DNA of 64,000 bases from NCBI GenBank assembly GCA_000442015.1, contig KE560790.1:1-64000 (forward strand). The letters run 5' to 3'. The notes under the pieces are model-generated. The model ran no database searches. It saw only the letters and a list, made by a program, of their open reading frames with translations, and was not told the origin of the DNA. Made by a program: the position numbers and the translations under genes. Origin of the DNA: Rozella allomycis CSF55 (taxonomy: Eukaryota). This document shows, one piece after another, positions 12,079-14,372 of this stretch. How positions within the stretch are numbered: the first letter of the stretch is position 1; the number at the start of each line of letters is the position of its first letter.

Positions 12079-14372
12079 ATGAAGAATTTGCTGTACTTTC
12101 TTTTCTTCTCTTGGGCTTTTGCACTTGAAGAAATAGTTCTTTTAAGATCCCGCTCTGGTGACTTCTCGTCAAGTTATCTTGGGGTCAAAAATCAAGGATC
12201 TTTGAATTTGGTGGCAGATGAGTTACAAAACGATAGTGTTAATTTTGAGTGGTTAATGAGATTATCCGATGTCGATTTGAAGCACGTAAGTTTGCAAGTC
12301 TCTGTTGACGATAATGAATATTTTCTTGGTATAGACCACCAAAGTGGCCATCTTGCTCTATTGGAGCATGAATACATACTAAGCATTGAGTATAAAGAAA
12401 ATAGGAGGTACATTACTCTATGTACTCTGAAAACTGAATTGGATTCAGTAATAAAATGTTTGGACATGACGGAGTCTGGATTTGAATTCGTGCAAGTTGA
12501 AGATAAGCCAACATTAAAATTAGAAGTAGCTCGTATTCTAACTCAGAATGTCGAGGCCTATTCATTAGCCGGGAATGTGTTGGAAAGAATTGCTCAACAA
12601 AGGATGTTAACGCCATTACCGGCTCTGTCGCCTCCAAGACAAGTTATTCAGTCAAATTCTCCAGTTTCGAATAGAATTATCAGAAATTCACCGCCGAGAC
12701 AGAATTCAAGAATAACATCTACAGCACATATGTCAAATTTCATTGCACAGCAGGTCATTAGTAGACAATCAGCAAGTGTTTTGCCTAGAACTCCCTCGCC
12801 TCCTAGAACACGCCAAAGGAATCGTACTCCCTCACGAGCAAGAGGTGACGAAATTGAAAATCCGCCAATTATTAGGCCAAGGGAGAGTAGAAGACGCTCA
12901 AATTTTGCAGTTGTTCCTAACATTTCTTTGCTGGCCACAAATACACCCACCACTGAAAATACAATAGTTGATACAGGCGCCACAAATATAGAAAATTTAG
13001 GTGATAGTCATAATAGAAATGCGCAAAGAGAAACTAGAGTGAGGAGAAGCACGGCAATCGTACCGAATATTTCGTCTCTAGCACCAAGCATACCTGCCGC
13101 CGTCAGTCAAGATCGCCGTGAAAGAAGTGGAGCTGTAGATATTAGTGTAAGCGAGCTGAGTGATCACCTTAATTCATTGCTAACTTTACACAATGGCGCG
13201 AATTCTATGTCTTATGAAGAGCAATCGTTTCCTTCTTTTTTAGATGTTTCTTTGGATGAATATTTGTTCCTGATTCCGATGACCGTTCGTGCCGAACATT
13301 TGTTTGATGATGCATTTCATGAATTCAATACGATTTTCGCTTATTTGAACAAGATGCACGAAGAGGATTATAGAATTGATTCTGGGATAGTTCTACTTTA
13401 CGTGACAATGTACGGGGAAAATGGTATTGATCATGGTGGTTTGTCGAAGTATTCTATTTTCAACGTTCTTATTTAGGTCTTTAATATCAAAACTTCAACG
13501 GGAATTTGTGAAGAGATCGATTCTTGTACTCAAGCGAGGGTTCTTAACTTTCAATGAAGACTCGGCTCAAGGAATGGAAGATTTTTTGGCTTTTGTTATT
13601 TCCTTGAGTCTTAAATATGGAATACCATTCAGCCATCCTTTGGCTCCTTCATTAGTTAGATTCTTGACATCCGAAGAAAATAATGCATTTGATGTTTTGG
13701 ATGCTGAACTTCCAGTTGTTGCTCGAACTCTTAAAAATATGATGAAATCAACAATTGAAACCCCACAAGATTACTATATGTTTTTTGAAGATGATGGAGG
13801 CAATGTTCAGGTCAATGACTCGAACAAATTTGAAATAATTGAAAGGCATCTTCGTTGGATAAAACAGGGAGCGACTTCAGTGATCCATAAACATTTATTT
13901 GAAAATCTTCAAAAATCTTTCAAAAGTTATTGCCCAACACTCTACAAAGAATTGAAATGGACAGAAATTCAAACCGCGTTAAAAGCTCCACTCGAAATAG
14001 ATGTTAACAAGTGGCAACGCATCACAACCTATCAGGACTGTGATATTCAAGATAATTCGGTTGAGTACTTTTGGAGAGTATGCAAAAAATTTGGATATAA
14101 CTTAGGTTATACATGAGGCTAGTAATGAAATAAGGTCAAAAGTCTTATTCTTTGTTACTGCTTCTTATAGTCTTCAAAACAAATTCATCATTAAATTTGT
14201 AGATTACCAAGGTGTTGAAAAAACTTATCCCACCTCTCAATCATGTTTTTCTATATTGAAACTTTATAGAATTCCTGAGTATCAGGAGGGGGACATAGAA
14301 CACGAAGATTATGCCGTATTCAAGAAGAAACTGTTGGCAGTAATAGAAGAAGAGAATTTTTCATTATGCTAA
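12079..14372 (+). CDS. Signal-peptide-bearing HECT E3 ubiquitin ligase (introns 13449-13476, 14078-14105)
   Basis: MKNLLYFLFFSWAFA signal peptide; HECT start GENGIDHGGL; DVNKWQRITTY...SVEYFWRV; LFFVTAS; catalytic YPTSQSCF (Cys codon 14244-14246); C-terminal F in EENFSLC*. Confidence 0.88.

Follow-up and report, generated by a model that had tools for sequence, protein, structure and literature searches.

A HECT ubiquitin ligase gene with a predicted signal peptide in Rozella allomycis: a candidate secreted effector

Could an intracellular parasite of fungi send a ubiquitin ligase of its own into the cell in which it lives? This question is raised by a gene in the first 64,000 nucleotides (nt) of contig KE560790.1 of Rozella allomycis CSF55 (positions 1 to 64,000, forward strand, GenBank assembly GCA_000442015.1), a stretch referred to as a whole as the window. 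R. allomycis is an obligate intracellular parasite that infects fungi. The gene, located at 12079-14372 on the plus strand, encodes a protein of 745 residues in which a predicted signal peptide, an N-terminal domain and a basic linker precede a HECT domain. HECT enzymes load ubiquitin from an E2 (ubiquitin-conjugating enzyme) onto a catalytic cysteine, and ubiquitin, E1 (ubiquitin-activating enzyme) and E2 are cytosolic or nuclear. The secretory pathway contains none of the three, and a working signal peptide would therefore leave the host cytoplasm as the only sensible site of action. The need of HECT ligases for cytosolic E1 and E2, from which an initial annotation of this DNA had argued for export towards the host ubiquitin system, agrees with established knowledge. 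Here we describe the gene and propose, at a rough probability of 0.45, that its product is an exported, host-directed E3 (ubiquitin ligase), both export and action in the host being predicted from the sequence.

A three-exon gene for a divergent HECT protein

The coding sequence starts with the ATG at 12079, ends with the TAA at 14370-14372 and is distributed over three exons. The frame opened by the ATG contains 465 codons and stops at 13476; it is followed by frames at 13406-14116 and 14106-14372, so that the reading frame of the gene shifts twice. Removing two 28-nt introns with GTA..TAG ends restores continuity and yields a spliced coding sequence of 2238 nt (745 codons). The stop-free frame of the gene amounts to 474 codons, in DNA of 33-38% GC. 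Exon 1 (12079..13448, plus strand, as are all parts of the gene) encodes residues 1-456 and contributes two bases of codon 457; it contains the predicted signal peptide, the N-terminal domain, the linker and the first part of the HECT N-lobe. Its donor is identical in the NCBI model of the gene (P0001), which also has the junction at intron 1 (13449..13476, 28 nt, GTATTC..ATTTAG, phase 2). Exon 2 (13477..14077) encodes residues 457-657 of the N-lobe. Intron 2 (14078..14105, 28 nt, GTATGC..ACTTAG, phase 0) separates it from exon 3 (14106..14372), which encodes residues 658-745 of the C-lobe and the TAA stop. The initial annotation had placed the gene exactly between this start and this stop; it had overlooked the two introns, and the frame is not continuous.

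The HECT domain (approximately residues 398-745) is complete and divergent. The Pfam profile PF00632 (306 positions, gathering score 23.9 bits) matched exon 2 at profile positions 41-221 (E 3e-11, 43.9 bits) and exon 3 at positions 222-304 (E 1.1e-5, 25.6 bits). With intron 2 removed the profile is continuous, passing from position 221 at the end of exon 2 to position 222 at the start of exon 3, and both lobes are present at the C-terminus with 41-304 of the 306 positions covered gaplessly. The Pfam match is preceded by 34 more residues of exon 2 and by a G-I-D-x-G-G motif in exon 1. The catalytic cysteine, Cys704 (14244-14246), is found in the sequence PTSQSC, within a P-T-S-x-S-C-F loop, and aligns with the cysteine of the HERC6 C-lobe (PDB chain 5w87_A, E 0.83). 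A phenylalanine at position -4 from the C-terminus is a HECT feature, and the protein ends with N-F-S-L-C, which puts Phe742 at this position. Searching the PDB with the N-lobe (phmmer) returned Rsp5 chain 5hpl_A (E 9.9e-5), followed by SMURF1/2 and ITCH, and 28 of the 30 ESM Atlas matches of exon 2 were HECT clusters (score 0.95). By every sequence test made, the protein belongs to the HECT family. The divergent HECT domain with its catalytic cysteine (PTSQSCF) reported in the initial annotation is therefore borne out by two Pfam matches above the gathering score and by the retention of Cys704 and Phe742. Collectively, we are confident that a real, intact HECT gene occupies 12079-14372.

The sole database record of this gene is P0001, annotated as 'hypothetical protein ROZALSC1DRAFT_25111, partial [Rozella allomycis CSF55]', which was 100% identical over the covered part when exon 1 was used as a query. 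This model is partial, lacks the 5' end and is mis-spliced at intron 2, where a longer intron removes about 30 conserved C-lobe residues (alignment, window 14078-14205). Because P0001 uses this longer intron, its HECT match is broken into two stretches, the first of which ends at profile position 226, with a total of 57.5 bits. The two sequences also differ at codon 701 (14235-14237), three residues before the catalytic cysteine, which encodes Ser in the window and Val in P0001; this difference could be an allele or an error of single-cell amplification.

No relatives beyond P0001 itself emerged from word-based searches in which exon 1, P0001 (compared with longer proteins) or residues 60-414 of P0001 served as query. 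A scan of metagenomes with exon 2 gave 160 stretches matched by pattern, none of which was confirmed by tblastn. Within the window, the spliced protein was compared all-versus-all with the 95 open frames that reach 90 codons; after removal of the rows in which one of the three frames of the gene itself was the query, it matched no other frame. BLASTP did not find similarity between the HECT gene and a signal-peptide-like orphan at 57197-58705. A search for paralogues combining a signal peptide with a HECT domain had been suggested in the initial annotation; within the window, the comparison of the 95 frames revealed none. As judged by these searches, the HECT gene is lineage-specific in this intracellular mycoparasite.

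The position of the start codon determines whether the protein has a leader at all. An in-frame stop is located upstream at 12049-12051, and 12079 is the sole ATG from there to residue 60; the next in-frame ATG is codon 60, within the beta-rich N-terminal domain. A tRNA-Gly(GCC) gene (11789-11859, minus strand) lies about 220 nt upstream of the gene start and therefore leaves little space for an upstream exon. For the codon log-odds, eight exons of the window with Pfam support served as the training set, which gave leave-one-out values of 0.08-0.26. In the claimed frame, the values per codon were 0.113 for the first 60 codons, 0.14 for the signal peptide and N-terminal domain, 0.142 for the linker and 0.14-0.235 for the HECT parts. 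They were negative in the two other frames of the gene and in every frame of both flanks (219 nt upstream, 328 nt downstream). Because the coding signal is present from the first codons, with a stop upstream, Met60 inside a domain and a tRNA gene nearby, the predicted translation start at 12079 is well supported. A true start downstream of the signal peptide, which the initial annotation had named as the finding that would speak against its proposal, is at odds with the coding-like character of the first 60 codons and with 12079 being the only ATG before residue 60.

Signal peptide, orphan domain and linker

The predicted signal peptide corresponds to residues 1-15 (12079..12123, plus strand) and was identified using the hydropathy maximum and the -3/-1 rule. 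It consists of an n-region (M-K-N), a hydrophobic core that starts at residue 4 and extends to residue 12 or 16, and A13-F14-A15 before the predicted cut. Residues 4-16 form the strongest hydrophobic stretch of the whole 745-residue protein (mean Kyte-Doolittle 2.08), with K2 before and E17-E18 after it. The membrane-insertion sum was never negative in windows of 19-21 residues across the protein, the best 19-residue window reaching +1.9; these sums are approximate. The hydrophobic core contains 13 residues and is therefore too short for a membrane span. By this heuristic, based on hydropathy and insertion sums, the protein displays an n/h/c layout without a further membrane span, and the layout of its N-terminus is that predicted for a leader that is cleaved off, not for a membrane anchor. 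The 'clear signal peptide' of the initial annotation does have the anatomy of a cleavable one, as indicated by the hydropathy maximum at residues 4-16, K2 and A13-F14-A15.

The leader is followed by a beta-rich domain (approximately residues 17-160; 12127..12558, plus strand), delineated from AlphaFold strands and an orphan in sequence searches. This domain is acidic, with a net charge of -13 over residues 17-165. Two single-sequence AlphaFold models, with pLDDT (predicted local distance difference test) values of 41.2 and 39.7, contained 10-11 strands in residues 17-150; a beta-strand-rich domain of about 140 residues, as initially annotated, was thus recovered in both models at a pLDDT of about 40. 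No Pfam family and no PDB entry (phmmer) matched the domain at E<=10. An HMMER search against 1.84 billion representatives returned a single match (P0002), a bacterial repeat protein of 1420 residues with E 1.2e-5 over five short stretches; this match was judged compositional and rejected as a relative. As far as sequence comparisons reach, the domain appears to be an orphan, and the lack of detectable relatives would be an effector-like trait.

The initial annotation had proposed a beta-trefoil of the ricin-B or fascin type for this domain. In the ESM Atlas, 11 of the 30 best matches were named, as RicinB_lectin_2 (8), AbfB, CDtoxinA and Inhibitor_I66, all of which we take to be beta-trefoil families. 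These matches had scores of 0.91-0.92, 97-112 shared features and a recognition value of 1910, and are to be read against the fact that a third of shuffled proteins also yield ten consistent matches. A calibration on the true HECT exon was clearly stronger, with a score of 0.95, 172-192 shared features and a recognition value of 2308. A beta-trefoil has twelve strands and a three-fold repeat of about 40-45 residues. Smith-Waterman comparison of three motif-bearing segments (a, b and c) against 1000 shuffles did not reveal a significant three-fold repeat (z of 1.75 for a-b, reached by 65 of the 1000 shuffles; -0.28 for a-c; -0.52 for b-c). Trefoil repeats are frequently invisible at the sequence level. 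A VIA-align structure search with the first, low-confidence AlphaFold model gave a best Z of 6.2, in the noise range, and no trefoil in 50 rows. The trefoil proposal thus retains a weak lead from the language model and gained no profile match, significant repeat or confident model; we put the odds of a trefoil, a prediction from modelling, at roughly even.

Between this domain and the HECT domain lies a basic linker rich in Arg, Ser and Pro (approximately residues 165-397; 12571..13269, plus strand), which is probably disordered as judged from its composition and motifs. The 216 residues from 170 to 385 include 30 Ser, 28 Arg and 21 Pro and carry a net charge of +12, as expected from the R/S/P-rich linker described initially. 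Three SPPR motifs are present, and a motif of about 18 residues, RRS..A-[VI]-VPNIS-[LS]-LA, occurs twice, 49 residues apart, at 12889-12942 (residues 271-288) and 13036-13089 (residues 320-337), both on the plus strand. A Pfam search with exon 1 found no family above its cut-off. The repeated motifs may represent docking or phosphorylation sites.

Export into the host weighed against action inside the parasite

We propose the following sequence of events for an exported ligase. The protein would enter the endoplasmic reticulum of the parasite and shed residues 1-15; it would then be released at the host-parasite interface and arrive in the cytoplasm of the host, Allomyces. There, ubiquitin from a host E2 would be transferred onto C704 as a thioester and from this cysteine to host proteins, picked by the orphan N-terminal domain, the repeated linker motifs or both. 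By analogy with other HECT ligases, target choice would fall to the N-terminal domain and linker motifs.

The architecture of the protein was compared with that of known E3 enzymes. Like canonical HECT E3s (PF00632; Rsp5, SMURF1/2, ITCH and the HERC6 C-lobe), it has a bilobed HECT domain at its C-terminus, a catalytic cysteine in a P-T-S-x-x-C loop and a Phe at position -4. Canonical HECT E3s choose their substrates via N-terminal regions, and the same layout is predicted here. Unlike them, the Rozella protein has no WW, C2, RLD or other known targeting domain; in their place stand a predicted signal peptide, the beta-rich orphan domain and a basic linker that is probably disordered, and the protein is detectable by profiles only. 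SopA from Salmonella and NleL from E. coli are Cys-dependent E3s made by pathogens, delivered into the host cytoplasm, where they use host E2. The likeness is one of logic only: SopA and NleL have convergent or very remote bacterial folds and depend on type III secretion, whereas the HECT domain of the Rozella protein is genuinely eukaryotic and its predicted signal peptide is of the classical type for the endoplasmic reticulum.

The closest parallel comes from an oomycete. According to Levesque et al. 2010 (PMC2926784), 16 of the 56 HECT ligases of Pythium ultimum have signal peptides by SignalP. As in Rozella, a eukaryotic pathogen encodes true HECT proteins with predicted signal peptides, proposed in that work to be secreted E3 effectors (PMC2926784). 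The Pythium genes, whose role as effectors is likewise a prediction, are part of an UPL1/UPL2-type family that has expanded to 56 members; the Rozella gene is, by contrast, single, with no paralogue in the window or in the databases searched. It also differs in lineage (Cryptomycota) and in that its host is a fungus. Microsporidia, a sister lineage of intracellular parasites, offer a second comparison. In the account of host-exposed proteins given by Reinke et al. 2017 (PMC5423893), most of these carry a signal peptide, evolve rapidly and lack known domains; LRR (leucine-rich repeat) or RING domains occur in some families. HECT is not mentioned in that account, and the localisation of the microsporidian proteins is experimental, as opposed to predicted for the Rozella protein (PMC5423893). 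In literature searches on Rozella HECT proteins, ubiquitin, secretome or effectors, and on secreted HECT effectors of parasites, no listed paper was found to describe a signal-peptide HECT in Rozella. What appears to be new here is a HECT ligase of Cryptomycota that combines a predicted signal peptide with an orphan domain; as a kind, signal-peptide HECT ligases had already been predicted in print for P. ultimum, in the work cited above.

Several points weigh against export. The signal peptide was called from hydropathy and the -3/-1 rule, and no orthologues turned up in the databases searched to cross-check its conservation. The start codon and both introns are part of a gene model derived from sequence. 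Since the HECT domain is too divergent for word-based searches, a loss of activity is possible, and the activity itself is predicted. The weakest link is the transfer across the host-derived membrane. The passages of PMC6317583 on the trophic stage describe an unwalled protoplast inside the host cytoplasm, in a compartment whose boundary is host membrane pushed inwards, and a secreted protein therefore needs a further step to reach the cytosol.

The main rival explanation is a ligase that remains in the parasite, a fast-evolving descendant of the fungal HUL4-type gene acting in the cytoplasm or nucleus of Rozella; we consider this a serious possibility at well below even odds. The leader would then either anchor the protein in a membrane so that the HECT domain faces the cytosol, an arrangement known from P450 enzymes with an N-terminal anchor, or have no targeting function. 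HECT enzymes are ordinarily cytosolic, and basic residues (R23 and R25) are found after the hydrophobic stretch. A membrane span is disfavoured by a core of just 13 residues followed by two Glu, by the approximate insertion sum of +1.9 for the best 19-residue window, and by the A-x-A motif directly at the end of the core. In P. ultimum, 10 further HECT proteins are listed with predicted signal anchors (PMC2926784). Table 1 of Marin 2018 (PMC5913265) counts six HECT genes in Rozella, with one each for RSP5, TOM1, HUL5, UFD4, HUL4A and Other and none for HUL4. The HUL4-related 'Other' sequence comes from the same species and is highly divergent, like the HECT domain described here, and the corresponding text reads it as an extremely divergent HUL4 (PMC5913265). 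Searches of that article for the terms signal peptide, secreted and N-terminal gave no occurrences. Marin's sequence may be this gene; if it is, the protein could simply be a housekeeping ligase of the parasite, a further point against export.

Two other explanations concern the ends of the protein. Were the 5' end of the model an artefact, with translation starting downstream (at Met60 or later, for example) or in an unseen upstream exon, the leader would be untranslated or internal. P0001, the sole database model, is partial and without a 5' end, and a short upstream ATG could in principle join in frame via a 35-nt GTG..TAG intron; this intron lacks the GTA donor shared by the 14 short candidates described below, falls outside their length range of 26-29 nt, and would only extend the n-region of the signal peptide. 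Given positive log-odds in frame for the first 60 codons (0.113) and negative values upstream in all frames, a Met60 that falls within the beta-rich domain and a tRNA gene 220 nt upstream, a 5' artefact is very unlikely. At the other end, the HECT domain might serve as an exported but inactive scaffold, a pseudo-enzyme binding host E2 or ubiquitin without transfer. Its divergence is extreme, with no relatives in word-based searches and PDB matches of only E 1e-4 over part of the N-lobe; the catalytic cysteine, its loop and the -4 Phe are nevertheless all kept and 41-304 of 306 profile positions are covered, which makes a pseudo-enzyme most improbable.

Neighbouring genes, short introns and implications

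The initial annotation had linked the HECT protein with an F-box gene with a signal peptide, together suggesting a toolkit for hijacking ubiquitin. This F-box/LRR gene (55-1449, plus strand) encodes 464 residues with a hydrophobic N-terminus (residues 1-17 or 1-25). The F-box match (residues 22-54, E 0.0014) reached 18.9 bits, below the cut-off of 20.5, and the LRR matches were near their cut-offs. No basic residue precedes the hydrophobic stretch of 17-25 residues, and the leader, as read from sequence features, is as compatible with a reverse membrane anchor as with a signal peptide. The hydrophobic N-terminus and the LRRs of the gene thus stand; the F-box is sub-threshold and the leader is open to either reading. 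Two genes of the ubiquitin-ligase type within 64 kb, both with a hydrophobic leader, are suggestive, as an anecdote. That Rozella exports both the HECT protein and the F-box/LRR protein encoded 10 kb away, as a ubiquitin-hijacking toolkit of one eukaryote against another, dating to the base of the fungal/microsporidian lineage, with a new substrate-recognition domain at the N-terminus (possibly a cryptic beta-trefoil) and linker motifs that act as docking or phosphorylation sites in the host, is on balance unlikely.

Other features of the window were surveyed. Its GC content ranges from 28 to 39%, tRNA genes lie between protein genes, and eukaryotic families such as RGS, ABC transporter, TPR and LRR are present. 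Four long open reading frames without a Pfam family have a strongly hydrophobic start (1558-2604 and 46778-48523 on the plus strand, 28947-30140 and 57197-58705 on the minus strand); in comparisons within the window they had no similarity to one another or to the HECT gene, and they may encode parasite proteins that evolve fast and are secreted or reside in membranes. Two RGS-domain paralogues are found at 16915-18204 and 33103-34128 (plus strand; E 1e-8 to each other). The N-terminal part of one is long, hydrophobic and multi-span, the other is fused to DUF4395, and both are membrane-bound RGS proteins, in a parasite whose genome is reduced. A single tRNA-Asn(GTT) gene (16796-16869, minus strand) is located between protein genes, like tRNA-Gly(GCC).

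The introns of the HECT gene belong to a wider class. Every GTA..YAG segment of 18-120 nt bridging two adjacent open frames was taken as a candidate, and 9 of the 81 candidates were exactly 28 nt long and AT-rich. Four of these are on the plus strand (4643-4670, 7042-7069, 13449-13476 and 14078-14105) and five on the minus strand (20305-20332, 34895-34922, 41703-41730, 46190-46217 and 61458-61485). The intron at 4643-4670 links a DnaJ exon to a DnaJ_C exon, and that at 34895-34922 links a DEAD exon to a Helicase_C exon. Other short frame-bridging candidates were 26 or 29 nt long, with 29 nt in four more among those checked; the 14 short candidates picked all had a GTA donor and a length of 26-29 nt. 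A strict GTAT..TTAG length scan counted 5 segments of 28 nt where 4.8 were expected, which is no peak, and the peak was visible only if candidates were required to bridge two open frames. Since the strict scan is peakless, the class is defined by its length and GTA..AG ends and not by a GTAT..TTAG motif. On this sequence evidence, the 28-nt intron class is real in this window. In a fungal set that includes Rozella, intron medians range from 29 to 197 bp, as reported by Ciobanu et al. 2021 (PMC8042348). Genes with 28-nt introns will be broken or mis-spliced by any gene caller that does not allow introns this short; the present analysis corrects the only public model of the HECT gene, which was partial and mis-spliced, and documents a narrow 28-nt intron class for gene callers.

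To our knowledge, pathogen E3 ligases are well studied in bacteria and are almost only predictions in eukaryotic parasites. The Rozella HECT protein is a clean, testable effector candidate, for which export into the host is predicted from its sequence, and a thioester on Cys704 would offer a tractable enzyme assay in an organism with scarce functional data. Among free-swimming organisms, Rozella stands closest to microsporidia, and it lives naked within another fungus. If its HECT protein is indeed sent into the host, takeover of the host ubiquitin system would be old in this lineage.

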